Part shown: one piece after another, positions 496-35,253 of the stretch
Layout: every line of letters starts with the position of its first letter
How positions within the stretch are numbered: the stretch's first letter is position 1
Origin: Sphacelaria rigidula
Taxonomy: Eukaryota
Length of the DNA stretch: 61,849 nucleotides
Direction of reading: 5' to 3'
NCBI GenBank assembly: GCA_964200075.2
Contig: CAXNAA020000002.1
Location: forward strand, 1 to 61,849
The notes under the pieces: generated by a model
The model's input: only the letters and a program-made list of their open reading frames with translations
Told to the model about the DNA's origin: nothing
The model's database searches: none
Position numbers and translations under genes: made by a program

Positions 496-2014
496 TCAGT
501 CATGACTGGTGAGATATGTGCCCGTCAGTTTGCAAAGGTGACACAAGTAGACCAAAATGATCACAATCACAAGAATGGTAAATTCAGAGGACTAAATGAT
601 CGTCTACGCAAGAGAAGCTCATGAAAGTCCATATCATGAATACGCGAACCCAGTTCTTCTTCGTATCCTGCACAATCCGGATCCTCTCAGGGCCGTTGCC
701 TTGTTGGAAGTAAGATATCTGATCCATGGATAGCGGCCAAGAATCCTGGTTTTTTTGGGCCAGAATTATAACACAACAGCTCAAACTGGTACAGAACAAC
801 GGCAGTACCTTTTTACGAGGTACGGAGGTACTTCGTGACAGACCCAATTATTTTTTTGGCGGGTTGGGATTCTTACACATTGAAAACCGCCCGGTACATT
901 CGCGCGTTGTAAATGCAAGAATGAAATGTCTTGTGTGTCATTCACAGTCTGGCCACACGTTGGTCGATGGATACTTGAATGGTGGCATGAACGCCGCACG
1001 CCACCTCAACCATTCAGGGGTTCGACTGGTGCACACTTGGAAGCCAGGCCACGGAAACATCCCTCATGAGCGTGTTCATCGGGGCAATCGTATTTTTCCA
1101 GCTGACTTATGAACAAGCGATTCTTGATCAGCTTTTGGGGAAGCTGATGAGTCAGTCCCAACTTTGGGTTGCCAAGGAGCATGCACATGTAGAGGGCAGG
1201 ACTTAATCACCCCCTGTGGTTTTTTTGTTGAATTGCCTTTGCGGGAGTAAGTAAGTACACTGTATCGAAAGACATAGCACGAGTCCGAAATTTACTGCAC
1301 AAGCCAGAATCCAGCCGTAGAATGAAAATACAAACAGTAGGGCTCTGAATACAACACTGGAGGTCGCCAAACAAGGCATGCAGAGCAGGCTACAGTTGGC
1401 GATTGTGCACTGCATCATCGAACACCAGGATTGCACTGGTAACCTTGGCAATGTTGACTTTGTTCTGCTATCGTATCACGCAAGTTGCTGGGTATTATTG
1501 GTGGAGACATACTATACTCTATGATATCCCGATCCACACTCTGGTGTTCACAGGTATTTTACTAAGTAGCACTTGAACACCGTTAGCGATAATCGAGGCA
1601 TACAACTGATATGAACTTACAACGGGAACCAATCCCGTAGCGGAATTTATTGATCGATTGTAAAGACATCTGTAACTCAAGACCAGACAATTACATGTAG
1701 ATTTCACCAGCTGTACTTTTTCATGTCTTAACCTTAGCTGTTCGTTTTATCGGAGAGAAGGATCCCACTCTCTCTCCCACTCAGTAAAAGCCAAAGACCT
1801 CATATACCATGGAGATGAAACACTCACGGCGTCCATCGATCGGACGCGCAGACCAGCGACCCGTCGACCTACGGTAAACGCCTGGTACGTATTGTTCCGC
1901 CTAAAATTTTGCCCCCAACCCAGGTAGGAATGGTGCTAGAGTTGCGACGTTTAATTAAAACGACAATGGGCTCGGTGGATTGCTATTCAATATAATCAAA
2001 TACATTTTACAACG

Positions 2015-2686
2015 ATGGCAACGTCCACAATATATAGGTGCGCATCGATCGACATCGGCGTCATCAACCTTGCGTTTTGCGTGGTGGAGTTCACCGAAAC
2101 ATGTGACGGAGCGTTCACGTTTAATCTTGTCCACATGGAACGCGCGACGATCGGTGACGCGAAAGAGACCATTCACGTCCTGGGGAAAAAACTCTTGACA
2201 TTTTACGGCACCAATGATGCGTTGCAACACAAGAAGCTGGACTACGTGTTCATCGAGCAACAGCTCTCTCGTGCAGTAAAAAATATCGTGCTCGCTTACG
2301 TCACCATGGCGTATTTCGAAACAAAGTGTCTTGGTGAAGACAATACGACAATCGTCTTCGCCTCGCCTAAATCCAAGTTCAGGGCTGTGAGATACGCGTT
2401 TCACGAAGATGTGCTCGACTCCATCAACTTCAACTGCCATGGGCGTGAGCTGAAAAAATTGTCGGTGAAAATTGCCCAGGTAGTATTCAAGAGATTCGGC
2501 GTACAAGTCGGATTGGACAGTCTCATCCGATACAAGAGCAAACTTGACGACGTCTCAGACGTTTTCCTCCAAAGCTTTGTTTTTTTCCTGGAAAAGTTTC
2601 CGTCAAAGTCACGCGGTCACCAAGGTAGACTTTCCTTGTTTGTTGGAATTGAAGAGAACGAATGGACAGCGCGAAGACGCCGATGA
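2015..2686 (+). CDS. Holliday junction resolvase, poxvirus A22/RuvC-like
   Basis: SIDIGVINLA, VFIEQQ and KLDDVSDVFLQ RuvC-fold catalytic motifs; intact 223 aa. Confidence 0.88.
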   Translation: MATSTIYRCASIDIGVINLAFCVVEFTETCDGAFTFNLVHMERATIGDAKETIHVLGKKLLTFYGTNDALQHKKLDYVFIEQQLSRAVKNIVLAYVTMAYFETKCLGEDNTTIVFASPKSKFRAVRYAFHEDVLDSINFNCHGRELKKLSVKIAQVVFKRFGVQVGLDSLIRYKSKLDDVSDVFLQSFVFFLEKFPSKSRGHQGRLSLFVGIEENEWTARRRR

Positions 2687-2972
2687 AAAGACATAAGAGG
2701 TGACAGTCGTGACGATCGATTGTGATATGAATTTCGTAGTTACCATTCTTCTCTCCCCGGGTTGATCTTGTGTGAAGGACAGGGGTAGTGGACGTCGTGG
2801 AAACATGTCCGTCCGTGGCCACGACGGCACCAAGAGAGGACTGTGGCTTCATCAGTTGTTTCGTGATCGTTCTCAGCAATTCTTGTGCGAAGATGGGGCC
2901 GTATGCGTCGCTGAGCAGAGCCGGCATTGTGTCATATAATACAGAACAGATATTATTATCATCGCTGGACAA
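2523..2972 (-). CDS. Hypothetical viral protein (3' end uncertain, overlaps resolvase)
   Basis: ATG after AT-rich spacer; no motif. Confidence 0.4.
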   Translation of the reverse strand: MSSDDNNICSVLYDTMPALLSDAYGPIFAQELLRTITKQLMKPQSSLGAVVATDGHVSTTSTTPVLHTRSTRGEKNGNYEIHITIDRHDCHLLCLFIGVFALSIRSLQFQQTRKVYLGDRVTLTETFPGKKQSFGGKRLRRRQVCSCIG

Positions 2973-3096
2973 CTATTTTTATGACCATTTTTTCCCACCC
3001 AAAATGTTCTGAAAAGTTTTGTTGGTATCCGCACCACCTTCCTCATTCTTGCAGCGCCACCCCGCTCGCCCACGACGGCAACAAGGCTCGCGCAAC

Positions 3097-4046
3097 ATGT
3101 CTTCGGCTCCTTTCATCCCAGAGTCGGTGCTGGCGTTTTTTGCGGGTTCAGGTGGCATCAACGTCCTCGCATCTCCCTTGTTTCTTAAAAAGCACACGGG
3201 ACAGTCCCGAGTTTTCCTTCCCATCCATGACATTTACCACGCGGGTAAAGACAATGACGGGAACGCTGTGTACACTGTGTACAGAATCTTGGCTAAAGAG
3301 TACAAGCACAACACGATCCAGGGAATGCTGTGTGTCTCGCTGGTTTCCGGGTACGGGGTCAAGGACGACGGTGCTCGTGGCAGCAGCAATTCGACGTTCA
3401 TGCGACCAAACGACTTGAAGAAGTTGATGACGGAAGGAACAACAGCGATCAAGCGCAACTCGGTGGTGGCATTCAAGACGGGGATGGTGTGTCAGGCTGG
3501 AGGATATTGAAATTTTCTGCGATCTTCCCATAATCAACAGGAGAGACCTCATCGACAATCAGAGCGTTGGTGGTGTGATCAAACGCGACATGTACAAGAG
3601 AGACAGGGGCGAGCCAAACTGGGCGCCTGTCAAGCAGGGGGCACTCATCAAAGACATGGAGGCTTCTGTTCACCAACTACTCCTCCCGTACTACAGGAGG
3701 TACAGGGACAACAAGGACGACGCCACCCACTTCTTCAAGGCGTTCATGGAGGACATGATACGGACGTGCACTGCGCCACCACAAAAACTTCACGGATGGT
3801 GGTGACTTCGGTGATTTATTGGGTGATATTGTCGAGAGAAACCGTAAGAGGTCGTTTCCTTCTTTGCAGACGGAGACGCGCCCACGGAAGAAATGGGGGG
3901 GCAAGTCGGAAGTCACTGCAAGCAGCACAGCGATGCCGGTTTCTCCAGGCTCATCCAATCGGGACCAGCGTCAAACGAACAGGGATGTTGTCAAGGAAGC
4001 TTTGAAGAACGTCTCGAGAGAGAAAATGGCGGCGATTATTTTTTAA
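3097..4046 (+). pseudogene. Hypothetical viral protein broken by two frameshifts
   Basis: ORFs 3097-3510, 3575-3805 and 3819-4046 join across a G-run (~3481) and an A-run (~3785). Confidence 0.55.
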
Positions 4047-4586: not shown

Positions 4587-5864
4587 TTATGCTTCGGGTG
4601 GCAGAGTCATTGACGGTGTCGTCTGGTCGTTGCCGAAAATTGAAGTGGGGATGGCTGACGTCCCGGGACCTCGCATGGTTTTCCTCCTAAGTTTGTCGGG
4701 CTCTGGTGTGCGTGAATCAGGAGCAGGAGGATCCTTTGTAGGAGGCGTCGAACGAGGAATAGGGTAGTTTTTGGAACTCGCAGAGTTGGCACTGTTCAGC
4801 ATCCCCATCATGTTCATGACGGACGACATCGGACTGGGGCTTGGCTTTCTCTTTTCGGTAGAATCATGGCCTCGACTCCTTCCAATGGCATTACCGGCGT
4901 GGTGGAAAATGGCGGCTGACGTGAACGTGAACATGATTTGCATCTCTGGTCCGACGGAAGATCGTCCCGAGTACTTGTGGTGTATCTGTTCATAGCAGTC
5001 GTCATAGTCGTCCAAATTGAGCATCATACTCTCGGAGAAGCCTTCCAGCCGTAGGTTGAACGGGTTGAAGTAGGCGTTCCCGGTTTCGACCAAAGTTGTG
5101 ATGGTCACCAGAACGCGCCTCATAATCTTGATGGACTTTTTGGAATTGCTTTCCCTCTGCATGCGGTAACACTCGTACCTTATCTCGTCGACGTCGTCTT
5201 TGATATTCCACTCCTTTGTCACCGTGAAACCATTCTTTGACAAGTTTGTTATGCGCGTGAGCATCTCGACCTTCTCGTGAAGCAGTTCTTCTTTCCGTTT
5301 TTTCTTTTTACGGGCTATTTTGCCGGAACTGCCGGCGGAAGAACGGCTTCCGGAGAGCGCGGACGAAACCGTGTCGCTCCGCGTCGAAGATCGAGACGAC
5401 ACAGATGAAATCGACGAACGGTTCGAAGAAGAGGTTGACACCGATGGCATGGACGACGACGACGACGACGACGATGCGTATCCTTTTTTCGCCGTGACCT
5501 TTTTTCCGTCTTTCACGGTGTTCTTCTTTGTCTTGCTCCGCCCTACCGAATCCATTTGATCGACGGGGCACGTCTTCAGCAAATTAACCAGTGTTCCAAA
5601 GAGCTGGGAATTCGTATCGGGCTTGACGACGGGAGTTGGTTGTGCAATTGCCGGAGAGGGTGGCGGCGGCGTCGTCGATACACCTGGTTTCTTCTTCGTC
5701 GCGACCGATGGTTTTTTCTTTTGGATGGCTTTGACATTGTTTTTTTTGGTCGCTTTCCCCATCTTACCCACAAAATCGATCGGTGGACGAGGAAAACTTG
5801 GCGTCATGTTGGACTGACCAGCTTTATTCATATCCTGGCCTATGATGGTCTTCATGGACTTCAT
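4587..5864 (-). CDS. Conserved NCLDV protein (DUF5767-like) with Ser/Lys-rich N-terminus
   Basis: Block EIRYECYR...NPFNLRLEGFSESM...DYDDCYEQIHHKY...GPEMQIMF..AAIFHH typical of this family. Confidence 0.7.
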   Translation of the reverse strand: MKSMKTIIGQDMNKAGQSNMTPSFPRPPIDFVGKMGKATKKNNVKAIQKKKPSVATKKKPGVSTTPPPPSPAIAQPTPVVKPDTNSQLFGTLVNLLKTCPVDQMDSVGRSKTKKNTVKDGKKVTAKKGYASSSSSSSSMPSVSTSSSNRSSISSVSSRSSTRSDTVSSALSGSRSSAGSSGKIARKKKKRKEELLHEKVEMLTRITNLSKNGFTVTKEWNIKDDVDEIRYECYRMQRESNSKKSIKIMRRVLVTITTLVETGNAYFNPFNLRLEGFSESMMLNLDDYDDCYEQIHHKYSGRSSVGPEMQIMFTFTSAAIFHHAGNAIGRSRGHDSTEKRKPSPSPMSSVMNMMGMLNSANSASSKNYPIPRSTPPTKDPPAPDSRTPEPDKLRRKTMRGPGTSAIPTSIFGNDQTTPSMTLPPEA

Positions 5865-12469: not shown

Positions 12470-15400
12470 TCAAACTTTCTGCCTCTTGAAAAACGACGTA
12501 ATCTCTTTCCGGCCATGGTTCAAGTTCGACATCCTCCGTTGCGATCCCACGAACAGGCTCGATGGCGAATCTATCACGTGCTGTAGCAGATCGACCAGCG
12601 GGTTCCTGAGCTGATGGTTGATGTAGTAGAGGGAATCGGGTCTGCGTCTCCCGATGTTTACCATCCGGGGGTCTTCCGCTCTGGAGCTGATGTCTCCTCT
12701 CCCCGTCGTGATAACGTAAGGTATCCTCTCGCCCAGCGTTGGTGGGTCCCAGTCAACGATGTCATACCTCACAAACGCCATATATCTTTCCCCTAGCTTG
12801 TGTGCGTCACTGATGCCGGCCATTACTAACCCAACAATTGTCGCATAGCTATCGTCGACCAGCACGCGTTGAGTGTCGTCGTACAATCGGCGCAGCGTTT
12901 CTATCATATAAGCTTCCGCCTTCCAGGGACTCGCGGGGTCGCCACGAATACTCTCGACCATGTCTGCCATTACGATATATCTCTTGGCCCTCGTCGACAG
13001 AAACGACCTAAGATTGGACATCTTGTTCCAGACGGATGAAAGCAAAGAGTCGTCGTATCCACCGGGAGTCTCGTAGGCAGGCTTGATGAAATCGCGGAAA
13101 ACTGCCTGTTCCTTGGTGCGCTCCAAAACCTTCAGGGCGAGCGTTGCGTGTGGAGAGGGAGTTTTGTAAAGCCACCGCTTGAGCTCCTTTCTGATCGTCA
13201 GATCCTCGATCGATATATCCCCCTTCTCTAGTTTCAACAAGGTGTTTGTCAAATGTTCCTTCACGGCCTTCCTTCCGTCGATGACGCCGACGTCCATGAG
13301 CATGTGGATGGCATCGGATGTGCATTTGCCTACGAACGGAGCGTTGTCTCTCCTGACGGTGACAAGCCCCTTCATTGTCATCGAAGGCGGTCCTTCAACC
13401 GTTTCCCATGAAAGACCGGCGTACCTCTTCTTGGAGACCAGGAGGTACTTGAAGTATATGTTCTCGAACTCCAGCAGAATGGGATGGCCGAACATGTCCG
13501 AGATCTCCTTGGAAACTTTCGTTCCCATGTCGAAGCAGTAGCGCATTTTGTCCGGGAGGTTTTTTATTTTTTCATGATCAGGAAAGATGACCATGACCGA
13601 GTCCGTGTCGCCGTAGATGACGTTGCAGCCGTGCACGTTTTCCGCGTATTCCTTGGTTTTCTTGATCATGTTTCTTCCAGTCGAAGTCACGGTGGCGGCG
13701 ATCTCCACTAGAGGAAGCATTCCGTTGTTGACAGTTCCCGTGAACCCGTAGATGGAGTTCATTGTCACCTTCTGTGCTTTCTGCTTGGAGTCCAACAGAA
13801 AATACTTGAATGGATCCTTCTCAGACTTCATGAGTTTTTTGGTCGCCTTTCTTTCTTCGCCGAGAACTTCCTCCAGCTCGCAGAGGATGCTCTTGGATCC
13901 TGGGCGGTGCGCAAAGGTGGCAGTTACTCCGTCGGAAATCTCGTGGTCTTCGTACACCACGTTCTCAATCTTTGACGACTGTAGTGTAGCACAGCTGCTT
14001 CAGCCGCATGATGCTCGGGTACAGTGAAGCAAAGTCCATTGTCACGACGGGATCCTTTTCATAAAACCCTTTCTTGGCGTCTATGACGGACGCTCCTTTG
14101 TAGCCTTCGTTCATCACTTGCTTGCCGTCGGCCGTCGTCTTCTTCTTGGCCGGCGTGTAGTTGCACACAAACTCGCCGTGTGTTCGGTTGAGGATCAGGC
14201 TCATGCACTTGATCTGCTGACCTCTTCCAACGATATACGTCAGCGGGACCGCGCAGAGCTTGGCCATTTCCGTGGCGTCATATACTTCCTTGATATTGTC
14301 CAGCAATTTCAGAACCAGCCCGCTGTCCTGGTAGCAGTACTTGGCGATAACCCCCAGCTTCCTGGGATCCTTGGACGTACATGCATCCAGGATGTCCTTG
14401 TATGTAACATCATCCTTCTTTCCACCGAAGAACTTCTCGCACACGGCGTTCAGCTTGTAGCTGGATAGCTTTTGTGAACGCCTCATCACCATAAAAAGAT
14501 CTATCTCGACGCGGCCCGGAATTATGATTTGCTTGAGCTCGTTTTTTCCGAGAGCGGCGCTTTGCAGAGTTTTAACCTCGAGATCGCAAACGACATCCTT
14601 GATGAAGCTTAGCTTCTTGAATGCGTCGAACTTGTACTTCTCCGCCCTCTTGTACAGGAAGGCCGAGTCGAATTTGAACGTGTTGTACCCGCACAGGATG
14701 TTACAGCCGCGGTCGATCAGGATTTCCCTGAATTTGTCGAGAAGATCAAGCTCGTTCTCGACGACAAGAATCGGCGTTCCGTCCACGGAGTCGGTGTCGC
14801 CCACGCACATCACGACACCGTCGGCGTACGACGCGACGGCGTGATCAGCTGCGGAAGCGTTCGAATCGCCACCGGAATCACCGAGCCTGGCGAATATCAT
14901 CGACACTTGAAAAATGCAGTCGTCATTGGCGTTGAGCCCCGACGTCTCGAGATCGTAGGAACAGATGGTCATCGGCGGTGGCATTCGGTCAGAGGCTTCT
15001 TGTCCCACGGGATGGACGTTATGGAAGTCGACGACAAACTCTTTCGAGCAGTGCGTCTTCTTCGCTTTGTCGGGCACCTGCTCGTAATCTTCCATCCGAA
15101 AGTAGGAGGACGGTCGGACACCGCTTGCGTGAAAGAACTTGAGAATCGAGTCGATGCCATTGCATTCGTACACGCGCATTCCCGGGTACTTGTTGAGGTC
15201 GACGAAAGTGTTCGGAGCTGGCTCACGTTGGCCACAGAGCTCCTGTAGCTGCTTTCGAACGATGAAGAAGGCGATCGATCCGGTAAACTCCATAAGGATG
15301 TAGGGGAAAAGCTCTCCGTCGGAAAATCCAATTAGTCGTTTTCGTTTGATGACGGTCATGGCGTACACGTGCCGGGCCCACTGCTCCTGCTTGAACTTCT

Positions 15401-15572
15401 CGACGTAAATCGTTTTGACAACGTCTTCCGACACATCGAGATCGAAGCCCACGTACAAGTAGGTCTTGAAATTCTTGACACTAACAAATACGTTCGTGCC
15501 GTCCTCTTCCATCGCGAAGATCTGCATCATGGGACTATAATTCGTGTTTCTCCTCATTAAAAAATTGAACAT
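12470..15572 (-). pseudogene. polB: Family B DNA polymerase (phaeovirus type), split by a deletion/frameshift
   Basis: Exo motifs YDLETS and GYNTFKFD; pol motifs DFASLYPSIM, KVTMNSIYG, YGDTDS, KKRYAG. Frame breaks at ~13965 (..TTVVKD* / IENVVYEDH). Confidence 0.95.
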
Positions 15573-26723: not shown

Positions 26724-26799
26724 TCATTTCCTTTGATCTCTGTCAACAATAAAATTGTCGAGAAGAAGAATTGCGAGGACGACGTAACACGTGTGGTGT

Positions 26800-27036
26800 T
26801 CGTTGTCCATCCTCAGAATGTGACCAACACCTCTCTCTTGAGTACAGCACTTGACGAGAGTGTAGAACAGGGAGGATGTGTCTATTTTACGGCGTCTCTG
26901 AATCCATTGTTCGTCGCATTTTTTGAAGACATCATAAATCTCGTGATGAGTCGAGTAAGTCATTTCAGGTTTGTTTATATTTTTACAAAACATTCAACTT
27001 TCCAATGTGCCTAACTTTACAACAATGGGTTCGATG
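26800..27036 (-). mobile_element. Truncated 5' end of IS4-family element (second copy)
   Basis: MTYSTHHEIYDVFKKCDEQWIQRRRKIDTSSLFYTLVKCC..HILRMD closely matches the transposase at 33823. Shares upstream AACTTTCCAA/AACTTTACAACAATG repeats and ends in CAT at the same offset. Confidence 0.8.
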
Positions 27037-27071
27037 GACATTCCTGTTCTGTACCGTACGACAAAAATAAA

Positions 27072-32440: not shown

Positions 32441-32971
32441 TCAGTTGTTTTCAGCAATCACCTCGTCAAGAACTTCTTTCACTTTCTCAAACAACCAAAA
32501 CGGCCTTCCCCAGATCAAGTCCACGATTTCAACGTGCAGAGCATCATCTTCCACAATTCTTTTGCAGGTGTCGCTCTGCATTACATGCTTAACCTCGGGC
32601 AAAATACACCGCAAAGAGTAATCCAGAGATTGGGTTGCCATCGGCGCGCTCGTACTAAAATCGGGTTCACCATCGCCCTGTCGGTACATTGTGACTTCAA
32701 TGTAATGTATCGAGGAAAAGGGGAAATGTGCGTCGTGCAGACCGATAAAGAAGTCGACGCCATAAACCAACCGCATCTTTTGCTCGAATTTTCGCCCAAG
32801 GCCTTTCGCCAAGATGCCGCTGACGTACGATCGTTGCCAGAGTGTTAGCGGAGGATTGAGAACGTGTCCGTCAAAATGGTGGGTTACCTGCTTTTTTGCT
32901 CCCATCTGCGAATCTGTCGTTACGAGACCCCTACTATTAACCTCAGATAAATGTGGTCTTGCTTGCGCCAT
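32441..32971 (-). CDS. Hypothetical viral protein
   Basis: 176-aa ORF. Confidence 0.55.
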   Translation of the reverse strand: MAQARPHLSEVNSRGLVTTDSQMGAKKQVTHHFDGHVLNPPLTLWQRSYVSGILAKGLGRKFEQKMRLVYGVDFFIGLHDAHFPFSSIHYIEVTMYRQGDGEPDFSTSAPMATQSLDYSLRCILPEVKHVMQSDTCKRIVEDDALHVEIVDLIWGRPFWLFEKVKEVLDEVIAENN

Positions 32972-33019
32972 CGACGCGTCTTCTGTTACATCTCCATCAC
33001 TAGCGTCAAGTTTAGAAAA

Positions 33020-33135
33020 TCAAATCGAAAGAACTATAAACATGACGGTCGTGAAAAAACGGAAAACCCTTAAAACCACTTCTGACCGAGCAAAAGCCCG
33101 AAACCACGCATTCCGATGTTTGTCGACCCTACATT
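33020..33135 (-). ncRNA. Candidate Fanzor omegaRNA (scaffold overlapping ORF end, plus flank-derived guide)
   Basis: Position at the element 3' end; only 29 nt from stop to terminus; possible CGGTC/GACCG pairing around a U-rich stretch. Inferred from architecture, not demonstrated. Confidence 0.35.
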
Positions 33136-33336
33136 GTCGCGATCCATCTCGAACTCTGGTGTCAGAGGATGTAGTCTACAGGACTCTTCCGGATACCCGA
33201 CCTTAAAGTTTCTGCAACTCCGGGTTCTCCGTTCTTTGTCCTCGACCGTATCCTCGAAACACCCTGGGCACCTCTTGGAAGTATAGTGTTCGTGTACCAT
33301 CAACACCACTCCTCTGCTTAGCGTGTCTTCATTCCA
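33070..33336 (-). pseudogene. Fanzor/TnpB nuclease C-terminal remnant (zinc finger + RuvC-III)
   Basis: VHEHYTSKRCPGC...SCRN...C...MDRDNVGSTNI matches TnpB/Fanzor E.yTSk.C..C and DRD.naa.NI motifs. Confidence 0.85.
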
Positions 33337-33823
33337 TACACTCCGGAGCATCGATACAGCTGCCTTCCTTTCGTTAAAGTGTTTCGTGAGCTCAAAGTCT
33401 ACGCATGCATTTACTCTTCACATCTACCATAGAAGAGAGCATGACAAGTGGCCTTTTCGCGGGACCCGACATGGGCTTATCGTTCGTTCTGGTCTTGTAA
33501 CCAGCGTCGATGAAGGAAGGATGCACGTGGACTTTGGAACCATCCACAGCAAAAACACGCGGGTCATGAGGCCCGCGGTGTAAAAACCGATTGACCTCTT
33601 TGAAAGCTCCCTGGGGAAGTTTCTTCGTGGCCAGGTGAACCGCCTGCGACGAGTATTGTTCATCGTCCATCCTCAAAATGTGATTAACGCCTCTTTCTTG
33701 AATACAGCACTTCGTGAGCGTATAGAAAAGCGAAGACGTGTTTATTTTACCGCGCCTTTGTATCCAGCGCTAGTCGCATTTTTTTAAAGCGTCGTAGATA
33801 TCGTGATGAGTCGAGTATGTCAT
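33337..33823 (-). pseudogene. IS4-family DDE transposase, N-terminal remnant
   Basis: YSSQAVHLATKKLP, RVFAVDGSKVHV (first catalytic Asp), MLSSMVDV, FNERKAAVSML; stop at 33770 and frameshift ~33410. Confidence 0.8.
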
Positions 33824-34107
33824 ATTTGCTTCAAGTATAGCAACATTTAACTTTCCAAGATGCTTAACTTTACAACAATGATCGCCATGGCACTCAACTT
33901 TCCAAGCGCATGTACAGGAGACAATTCCTACGCGCCGTGGTCCCCGAAACAATCGTACGTCTGCTGCCTTCGGATACGATTGCTGCTACATCGCACAGAC
34001 GGAGGTTGACGCCGGCGCTGGCTCGGAGGCGTGCCCGGTGGCGTGGCAGAAGGTAACGACATTTATTTGTCTTGAATAAAAAAAGTAAATATTTTAATTT
34101 CCGCTAG

Positions 34108-35253
34108 TCACTTCTTCAGCAAAGCATGAAGCCTCGTCGACTTTTTGACGTAGTTGGCGCGCTGTGGGTCGGAAACATAGTCGGAGTAGCTGCGGTAGGA
34201 ACGTTTTTCGAGAGGTGCCATACTTGCCCTGATCTCTTCGGTAATCACGGGCTGTGCGGCAGACGCTCGAGGTTCTATCCCACAGCAATTTTGGCCTGCG
34301 CGCATGTAGAAGAGGCCCTTGGAGGCTGGTGATTTTATCGGCCACGCACTACTCCAGCTGTTGCGAATAAACCACATATTTCCATCGAAGCTCTCCTCGA
34401 CACCATTCACTTCTTCCGAATAGCCAAATATGACGGCTGCGTGCCCACCGACATACTCGTCACCTTTTTCTGGCCCATTATAAATATGTAGACCGGAAAA
34501 GTTGTACATTGATTTATAGACAAAAATTATGCAGCATATACTGCCATGCAGATAGAGCTCAACTTTCATTCTCTGCATATTTTTTTCGATTACTTTTGAG
34601 TAGTCGACACTTCCTTCCTTGTATCGATAAGGGTCTTCGCACAGCGACTTGACCGACCTTCTTGCAACAAACGTCCTCGGACCCTGTTGCTTCCTAGAAT
34701 CACATGGAGCGATCTGCGTCGTCTTCTGTTGGGCATACGGGTAGCGAGAATCTGCGGACAAGCCATTTTTTTCGGCCCAGTGGAAACCAGCTTCTGGTGA
34801 TCCCCCCACCTCGCATCCCTTGTCGGTTCCCTTTGGGTTGAAACAGGTCAATAACTCTTGGTAAGAGAGTGGTCGCATAATCTTGCCGCCAGTCAAAAGC
34901 GAGATCCGGTCGCTGATTACTTGGCAGATGGATATCGCCCAACAAGACGCACAAATTTCTTGATTTACGACTGGGGAAATTAGATGTTCTTTATATTTCA
35001 AGTATTTTGGCAGCTTCTTCGATATATCAGGCAAATTTGCCAAACCGATACCAATGGGGTAAGCGGGATCGATAGCCGCCGCCTGCTTCACGAACACTCT
35101 GTACGATTTCTTGGGCCCCGGCTTCTGCATGCCCTCCGGCAAACTGGTGTTCTCCAACACTGCAATCTCATTTCGGGAATCGACGAGATAGATGATGATG
35201 AGCAATGCGACGAAAACGAACGCCAACGTCCGACGACTACGAATGATGGCCAT
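34108..35253 (-). CDS. Papain-family (C1A) cysteine protease with N-terminal membrane anchor
   Basis: NQEICASCWAIS, GCEVGG, YPY, GGHAAVIFGY, IRNSWS; all catalytic residues present. Confidence 0.92.
   Translation of the reverse strand: MAIIRSRRTLAFVFVALLIIIYLVDSRNEIAVLENTSLPEGMQKPGPKKSYRVFVKQAAAIDPAYPIGIGLANLPDISKKLPKYLKYKEHLISPVVNQEICASCWAISICQVISDRISLLTGGKIMRPLSYQELLTCFNPKGTDKGCEVGGSPEAGFHWAEKNGLSADSRYPYAQQKTTQIAPCDSRKQQGPRTFVARRSVKSLCEDPYRYKEGSVDYSKVIEKNMQRMKVELYLHGSICCIIFVYKSMYNFSGLHIYNGPEKGDEYVGGHAAVIFGYSEEVNGVEESFDGNMWFIRNSWSSAWPIKSPASKGLFYMRAGQNCCGIEPRASAAQPVITEEIRASMAPLEKRSYRSYSDYVSDPQRANYVKKSTRLHALLKK

Follow-up and report, generated by a model that had tools for sequence, protein, structure and literature searches.

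An 883-bp internal-deletion derivative of the phaeovirus IS4-Fanzor1 transposon family in phaeovirus-like DNA from Sphacelaria rigidula

What is left of a transposon once both of its enzymes are gone, and can the remainder still do anything for the genome that carries it? The question is raised by a locus in a 61,849-nucleotide stretch of DNA from Sphacelaria rigidula (GenBank assembly GCA_964200075.2, contig CAXNAA020000002.1, positions 1 to 61,849; hereafter the window). Here a first-pass annotation had seen, on the minus strand, the N-terminal half of an IS4-type transposase running into the C-terminus of a TnpB/Fanzor nuclease, and had suggested a miniaturised element that might act as a guide-only cassette, its guide RNA (omegaRNA) being used by a Fanzor supplied in trans. 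The element occupies 33880..32998 on the minus strand and is an 883-bp internal-deletion derivative of the phaeovirus IS4-Fanzor1 transposon family of the ESv-2/ISvEsV1_1 type, whose full-length members measure ~3.6 kb; ~2.7 kb has been lost. Miniaturisation was therefore rightly recognised: both enzymes are gone, and both termini, the last 82 Fanzor codons and the tail behind them have been kept. What survives is probably an inert relic.

The two protein pieces are readily identified by comparison with intact relatives. The stop-to-stop frame 33769..33392 (-) gives an IS4-type transposase N-terminus with the motif VFAVDGSK, and the frame 33417..33070 (-) ends as a TnpB/Fanzor C-terminus (EHYTSKRCPGC..DRDNVGSTNI). 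With the 383-aa IS4 transposase of the full-length copy L001 as query, tblastn matches the window at 81% over 132 aa (33802..33407) and at 73% over 33 aa (33417..33319); the IS4 piece alone reaches the NCBIfam IS4 family at E 0.015 and matched no Pfam family. The 82-aa Fanzor remnant is 84% identical to residues 722-803 of the 803-residue L001 Fanzor and shares 81 of 82 residues with protein P0001, so that the succession of the two proteins on this strand, as first described, is borne out. The TnpB/Fanzor profile match foreseen for the C-terminal piece was also found, below cut-off: Pfam Cas12f1-like_TNB at E 2.8e-5, its 24.6 bits just missing the cut-off of 26.3, and NCBIfam guided_TnpB at E 0.0067. 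The remnant contains, as TSKRCPGC..C..C..DRD, the C-terminal motif [TS][TS]-x-x-C4 zinc finger-x(5,50)-RD defined by Bao and Jurka (2013, PMC3627910). With only residues 722-803 left, a complete RuvC-like triad and the WED/REC body are missing, and the piece is a gene fragment, not a nuclease.

Relatives were sought by back-translated scans of viral contigs, to which a scan of metagenomes was added. The viral-contig scans placed relatives of the element on one contig only, a 335,593-bp IMG/VR contig with two full-length copies (L001 and L002) that are 99.6% identical over 3615 nt. Each encodes an intact 383-aa transposase (Pfam DDE_Tnp_1, 1.7e-19), and the Y-2-R-3-E-6-K signature can be read in the translation of this parent enzyme; an overlapping frame encodes an 803-aa protein that passes the Cas12f1-like_TNB cut-off (26.6 against 26.3 bits). 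The metagenome scan supplied a complete copy, L010, which is 84.6% identical to L001 and has open reading frames of 383 and 796 aa, and a partial copy, L011, 93.6% identical and with an open Fanzor frame. The full-length parent presupposed by the first-pass annotation thus exists in a related virus (L001, L002) and in metagenomic DNA (L010); nothing matching it was found in a phage collection. The closest undeleted form is of the X8/P0001 type, named after a sequencing run (X8) and the protein mentioned above, and not one of the copies on the 335,593-bp contig. Judged by its sequence, the window copy is a diverged subtype of the ESv-2/ISvEsV1_1 family.

Alignment to the parent shows where the middle was lost. 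Two blastn blocks join L001 to the window, parent 1-561 to 33880..33322 (76.7% over 563 nt) and parent 3286-3556 to 33319..33051 (84.5% over 271 nt), and the tail and right end were aligned, with indels, by hand and with MAFFT. The missing stretch amounts to ~2.72 kb, roughly positions 564-3285 of the 3603-bp L001 copy. The deletion joint had been placed at ~33337; it lies between 33320 and 33319 and is in frame (..EDTL/SRGVV..). Independent evidence for this position comes from an X8 contig, which tracks the window from 32997 to 33319 at 98% identity (6 differences in 323 nt), departs from it at 33319 and continues into Fanzor coding sequence. By eye, the continuation encodes PRKAMIREMA on the minus strand, the same residues that precede SRGVV in P0001, and so represents the undeleted form. 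Among other protein clusters, searched for proteins of similar length, none of nine matches has an IS4-Fanzor joint.

On the left of the joint lies the remnant of the IS4 (DDE_Tnp_1) transposase, ~168 N-terminal codons at 33320..33823 (-) by tblastn and DNA alignment, with its start at 33823. These codons include the region of the first Asp (VFAVDGS); the second Asp, the Glu and the Y-2-R-3-E-6-K signature are deleted. The remnant is further broken by an in-frame stop at 33770-33772 (codon 18) and by a one-base frameshift near 33409, where a related contig of run X1 lacks the extra base. The single frameshift of the original description is therefore real, though it falls inside the IS4 part, ~90 nt upstream of the joint and not at it. 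Compared with L001, the transposase part has a proportion of nonsynonymous differences (pN) of 0.116 and of synonymous differences (pS) of 0.688. So low a ratio implies that the gene worked for nearly all of its divergence, and hence that the stop codon and the frameshift came late. The Fanzor part has a pS of 0.354 (52 sites) and a pN of 0.09. A transposase pS of 0.69 might have been thought special to the window copy, an idea discarded because the pattern recurs between full-length copies (0.56 against 0.30).

To the right of the joint, the last 82 Fanzor1 codons and the stop codon (33070-33072) occupy 33070..33319 (-), with zinc ribbon and RD motif in an unbroken frame. Between the stop and the right terminal inverted repeat (TIR) runs a 3' tail (33016..33069, -) that aligns with those of L001, L010 and L011 once indels are allowed. 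From stop codon to right end the distance is 72 nt, not the 29 nt first given, and over this length identity to those tails is 65-69%.

The true ends of the element, 33880 and 32998, are fixed by six left-end and five right-end copies and differ from those first proposed. The left-end copies become alike exactly at CATTGT.. (33880), the beginning of the left 18-bp TIR (CATTGTTGTAAAGTTAAG, 33863..33880, -), and likeness among the right-end copies stops after ..GTG, the end of the right 18-bp TIR (32998..33015, -; plus-strand letters CACTAGCGTCAAGTTTAG). The element is thus bounded by CA..TG, with a TIR of ~18 bp beginning 5'-CA. In fixed register 33880..33863 and 32998..33015 match at 12 of 18 positions (P 2e-4), as against 13 of 18 in L001, and position 13 differs from the ESv-2 type identically at both ends. 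Two subterminal TTG-AAAGTT repeats follow, one within the left TIR and one at 33849-33858, and both occur in relatives. The AACTTT(C/A)CAA repeats listed earlier correspond to these at 33849-33858 and 33866-33875; a third, at 33896-33905, is flanking sequence, present also in the insertion-free site on the 335,593-bp contig. The TIR pair proposed earlier, CATGRCGRTCRT at 33041-33052 and 33878-33889, has to be abandoned. It matches at 9 of 12 positions, which does not exceed chance: there are eight such pairs between the two 100-nt end zones, and random pairs of zones in the window average 3.7, 80% of 200 having at least one. Its supposed left copy lies inside the 3' tail, and its supposed right copy takes only 3 nt from the element, the others being the 8 bp of the target duplication and a single flanking nucleotide.

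That duplication is seen whole in run X4, which has the same mini-element at the same place. One copy (33881..33888, -) stands directly ahead of the left end. Behind 32993, X4 has 25 extra letters. With these, read on the minus strand, ATGGCGAT stands a second time and without a mismatch directly past the right end, and a further 17 nt match the insertion-free site on the 335,593-bp contig (in L006). In the window the right copy (32990..32997, -) now reads ATGGAGAT and agrees at 7 of 8 positions, because a 25-bp flank deletion in this strain removed half of it; the lost 25 nt fall between two ATGG repeats. L001, L002 and L010 have no 8-bp duplication, their left and right flanks being ATCCGTGG/AATCGCCA (L001 1767-1774 / 5378-5389), ACTGCTCC/AGCGCCTC (L002 1767-1774 / 5378-5388) and AGTCGGTG/ACTTCACC (L010 7-14 / 3618-3625). 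L001 and L002 stay alike for ~12 nt past the right end. Insertion without duplication beside a fixed 13-nt target was considered and dropped: the 13 nt belong to the right TIR (9 of 13 match the left end), and the X4 duplication is perfect.

As to copy number, the joint and both ends are bridged by contigs at this one locus in all three runs that cover it (X1, X4 and X5, from two studies). No contig in four runs joins across the element as an empty site would, the joint was found nowhere else in the runs examined, and the 61.8-kb window holds no second copy of the mini-element. Neither copies at other sites nor a presence/absence polymorphism, as mobilisation would produce, appeared in the four runs. 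In X8 the element occurs in undeleted form only, and at a different site; the left end was also seen at other places in X8 and on one more contig of X4. The window does hold a second family fragment (26795..27027, -), 76.6% identical to the mini-element and consisting of the left end and ~64 transposase codons, with no right end. The 335,593-bp contig bears at least three more: L005 4908-5475 (left end and 176 transposase codons), L004 4977-5229 (internal transposase pieces) and L006 1803-2168 (transposase end and the first 41 Fanzor codons). With pieces in both genomes that lack the 3' end, loss looks haphazard.

These features show the following history. A family element of ~3.6 kb inserted at the target ATGGCGAT, just upstream of a DUF6919 gene, and made the 8-bp duplication. 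Some 2.72 kb of its middle has gone, and with it the transposase's catalytic core and every Fanzor codon but the last 82; what is left of the transposase is broken by a stop codon and a frameshift. The 25-bp deletion afterwards took the flank directly past the right end. The product is probably a non-autonomous, decaying internal-deletion derivative. It would encode no working protein and could move only if the transposase of another copy acted on its two TIRs, and it most likely does nothing today, being carried at a fixed place in the viral genome.

Several observations weigh against so plain a reading. The deletion spared exactly what an element acting in trans would need: the two TIRs, the sequence ahead of the transposase start and, undiminished, the constrained 3' block described below. 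The 82 Fanzor codons are free of stop codons and frameshifts. X1 and X4 contain other contigs ~90% identical to parts of the element, one with a 3' tail of the ESv-2 kind, so that related copies exist in those samples and might supply a transposase or a Fanzor in trans. Finally, the 3' part is only 2% off the undeleted X8 form, which makes the derivative young; in a young derivative, the lack of decay in the 3' part says little either way.

The retained 3' end is the part that invites a functional reading. In the intact relatives it is constrained at the nucleotide level: L001 and L010, which agree at 84.6% overall, are 98-100% identical over element positions 3331-3510, and a Nei-Gojobori script gives Fanzor codons 736-795 a pS of 0.05-0.08 among L001, L010 and L011 (2.5 of 38.5 synonymous sites changed), against 0.32 elsewhere in the gene (binomial P ~1e-4). 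Among intact relatives the 68-nt tail keeps 93-97% identity, and the near-invariant last ~68 Fanzor codons plus tail span L001 5105-5377, L010 3344-3617 and L011 2195-2467. By analogy with characterised systems, this constraint sits where TnpB/Fanzor guide RNAs are encoded, and the ~180-nt block that closes the Fanzor gene in intact copies is a candidate omegaRNA scaffold; the expectation that the scaffold should lie in the retained 3' part was in this respect well founded. For comparison, an ascovirus Fanzor1 guide RNA is described as a ~120-nt scaffold that includes the TIR, followed by ~20 nt of flank (10.1101/2023.08.09.552727), and that of SpuFz1 as 88-90 nt long (PMC10432273). No omegaRNA mapping for IS4-associated phaeovirus Fanzors turned up in the literature searched.

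In the window the deletion begins 45 nt upstream of the constrained block, so the block has been kept whole. The region beside the right end is homologous to block and tail, 98% identical to the X8 form and 65-69% to ESv-2-type tails, and the retained stretch may encode a nuclease guide RNA. The guide originally read from it (33040..33026) is element sequence, with a core, TTTATAGTT, common to the L001, L010 and L011 tails. Conservation among copies runs past the scaffold/guide boundary proposed at 33041 as far as 32998, an outcome that the first-pass annotation had itself named as fatal to its proposal. The window block has a pS of 0.36 against intact ESv-2-type copies. Synonymous constraint on the window remnant itself was considered and rejected, its pS of 0.354 not being different from the 0.448 of the one flanking gene compared. 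A predicted fold of the 3' end gained no support from covariation (RNAalifold terms -0.09 with three sequences and +1.76 with five) or from folding stability (shuffle z-scores -1.74, -1.50, -1.43, -0.05 and +1.24), and Rfam with permissive filters gave no match over window positions 32500-34300. Among 23 sequencing runs listed, no RNA run contained the stretch. The pair involving TIR position 13, G-C in the window fold and C-G in the ESv-2-type fold, represents a single event and was given no weight. From a metagenome, L012 (2452-2586) shares 86.7% identity with L001 over a piece of the conserved Fanzor 3' block that is just ~135-160 nt long; it lacks both the Fanzor sequence upstream and the right TIR, and a 384-aa antisense frame overlaps it.

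The flanks of the family also follow a pattern. The target 8-mer starts with A and is preceded by CC in eight of eight distinct insertions, six scored by script and two, loose ends in X8 and X4, by eye (left flanks scored: L001 1765-1774, L002 1765-1774, L003 4545-4554, L010 5-14, and window 33881-33890 and 27028-27037), and the first base past the right end is A in five of five copies. CC-A would be a target preference of the transposase and, possibly, a target-adjacent motif (TAM) of the Fanzor; the IS4 subgroup is reported to be markedly specific in both arms of its targets (PMC2266710). The orthologous insertion-free site, between 5604 and 5605 of L006, has CG-G before the 8-mer and not CC-A. 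Directly past the 8-bp target, L006 has the native sequence GTTGACAACGGTG, which agrees with GTTGACAATGGTG, the right terminus of ESv-2, in 12 of 13 letters. Outside the termini, 179,683 bases contained no other match with one mismatch or none (0.21 expected). This 13-mer might have been a right-end remnant of the same ancestral insertion. That origin was rejected, since X4 has the 13-mer as flank beyond its duplication, which marks it as native sequence. In the window, the 11 nt of upstream flank at 33895-33905 are an exact copy of the left subterminal repeat at 33849-33859. The insertion-free target site (L006 5560-5640) thus resembles the element's own ends, and in L010 a 10-of-13 match was seen by eye 22 nt past the copy's own right end.

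Could the remnant, then, be a 'ghost' guide locus? A transcript from the left-end region, trimmed by a Fanzor made elsewhere in the virus, would give an omegaRNA whose scaffold ends at the right TIR and whose guide is the 14-21 nt of flank past 32998. Armed with it, the nuclease would cleave those alleles of the site, in related viruses co-infecting or resident, that have no insertion, and so favour copying of the element into them. Such a role is unlikely, in spite of some suggestive circumstances. The window keeps the whole block that is constrained in three intact relatives (pS 0.05-0.08 against 0.32), and in an empty allele CC sits exactly at the 5' TAM place for a right-flank guide, where the occupied allele has the right TIR. 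There is published precedent both for viral TIR-type Fanzor1 guide RNAs with the TIR in the scaffold (10.1101/2023.08.09.552727) and for ghost loci that work in trans (PMC10432273). However, the window block has itself diverged (pS 0.36 from intact ESv-2-type copies, with a tail at 65-69% and indels), and the fold lacks support from covariation or stability. The 25-bp deletion altered the would-be guide, which now mismatches the undeleted flank of X4 and L006, and there is one locus only, as against 134 in Spizellomyces punctatus. Moreover, the CG-G of the insertion-free site does not fit, and CC-A is equally explained as a plain target preference of the transposase, in keeping with the arm specificity of IS4 elements (PMC2266710). 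The more specific proposal of a virus-borne ghost locus with CC as TAM, a 0.9-kb enzyme-less passenger that homes into insertion-free phaeovirus alleles by means of a full-length copy's Fanzor, is quite unlikely.

The remaining alternatives concern the transposase and the neighbouring gene. A still-mobile passenger resembling a miniature inverted-repeat transposable element (MITE), cut and pasted through its 5'-CA..TG-3' TIRs by the IS4 transposase of a full-length copy, would retain both TIRs, as is found, and ends matched to one transposase would be expected to change alike, as they have at position 13. The perfect 8-bp duplication in X4, the ~90% related IS4 pieces in the same sample, one of which (X1 record 6) has no frameshift, and the polymorphism of family insertions reported among Ectocarpus endogenous viruses (PMC13236599) are also consistent with it. 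Continued mobility is nevertheless improbable. The element stands at the same locus in three of three covering runs, none of which joins across it, and the window has it only once. Of the last 13 positions of its right TIR, 4 depart from the ESv-2-type right end, and the severed piece of the gene upstream has acquired a stop codon, which suggests long residence. An effect on that gene is a different matter. On the 335,593-bp contig the DUF6919 ortholog is one open 249-aa frame across the insertion site (L006 5432-6178). In the window the element cuts off its first ~60 codons, leaving a severed piece (33928..34062, -) that ends at an in-frame stop (33928-33930), and a 176-aa downstream gene (32441..32971, -), whose ATG at 32971 lies 26 nt past the right end on the same strand. 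The insertion may have forced expression of DUF6919 from this internal start, perhaps by read-out from the element; the 176-aa core is conserved (74% aa identity, pN 0.15, pS 0.448). This is very unlikely to be of consequence, since the internal Met is kept in both viruses and it is uncertain whether the ~60 codons were ever coding, their 73% DNA identity being near the synonymous divergence (pS 0.45, one gene compared). Lastly, the in-frame fusion of IS4 N-terminus and Fanzor C-terminus might be a small regulator of transposition, like truncated transposase inhibitors, and its N-terminal, presumably DNA-binding, part has been under purifying selection relative to L001 (pN/pS 0.116/0.688). The stop at codon 18 and the frameshift near 33409 break the frame and nearly refute this idea, an in-frame joint is expected by chance in one case of three, and no such fusion occurs in the nine other clusters; it is extremely improbable.

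The mini-element belongs to a known family. The arrangement of L001 and L002 fits the published ESv-2/ISvEsV1_1, in which an IS4-type transposon with TIRs of 18 bp and target duplications of 8 bp carries Fanzor1 as a passenger (PMC3627910). Two copies are reported for Ectocarpus siliculosus virus 1 (De Palmenaer et al. 2008, PMC2266710), and related polymorphic IS4 transposon insertions for Ectocarpus endogenous viruses (PMC13236599). The window copy resembles ESv-2/ISvEsV1_1 in both ends, transposase N-terminus, Fanzor C-terminus, 18-bp TIRs, 8-bp duplication and phaeovirus-like host genome, and differs in being 883 bp long, without transposase core or Fanzor nuclease and with a broken transposase remnant. 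No deletion derivative of the IS4-Fanzor family is mentioned in the literature text searched. Like MITE-like elements, it has the TIRs and target duplication of its autonomous partner, a deleted interior and no transposase; unlike them, it shows no amplification or second locus and keeps 250 nt of the 3' end of a passenger gene.

Guide-only cassettes are not new as a kind. 'Ghost' Spu-1 omegaRNA loci without a Fanzor open reading frame, active in trans and present in 134 copies, are described in the fungus Spizellomyces punctatus (Saito et al. 2023, PMC10432273), and 20 extra copies of the Fanzor RNA (fRNA) of Chlamydomonas, with the RNA shown, have been reported (Jiang et al. 2023, PMC10530073). 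The mini-element is like the ghost loci in keeping both inverted repeats and the region adjacent to the right end without a Fanzor open reading frame. It differs in its single copy, its diverged tail, a deletion that touches the would-be guide and a carrier that is a DDE (IS4) transposon in a giant virus. The TIR-type Fanzor1 of Spodoptera frugiperda ascovirus has, from its published description, the same expected layout, and the window keeps the corresponding stretch; the layout in the IS4 elements of phaeoviruses would follow only from nucleotide conservation among intact copies. For Fanzor-less guide loci in giant viruses, the literature search yielded, in the text covered, only the S. punctatus report (PMC10432273). 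A guide supplied in trans would, if true, make this the first such 'ghost' locus in a virus. As an ordinary decay product, the mini-element leaves the understanding of the family, in print since 2008-2013, unchanged. Its value is as a pointer to three signals at the family level, the constrained 3' block, CC-A and a target site that resembles the element's ends, which make one question more testable, that of the role a Fanzor plays for a giant-virus DDE transposon that moves by cut and paste.

The surroundings are phaeovirus-like, with densely packed open reading frames and a G+C content of ~0.5, and the window also encodes a B-family DNA polymerase, a papain-type protease and an ankyrin protein. 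The viral-contig scans contained no relative of the neighbouring cysteine protease. The DNA polymerase (12470-15572, -) is split into a frame at 13965-15572 with the exonuclease and the start of the polymerase, and a second at 12470-13831 with the rest, the reading frame changing around 13830-13990. Either a core gene has been broken here, as happens when an integrated virus decays, or the assembly is in error.

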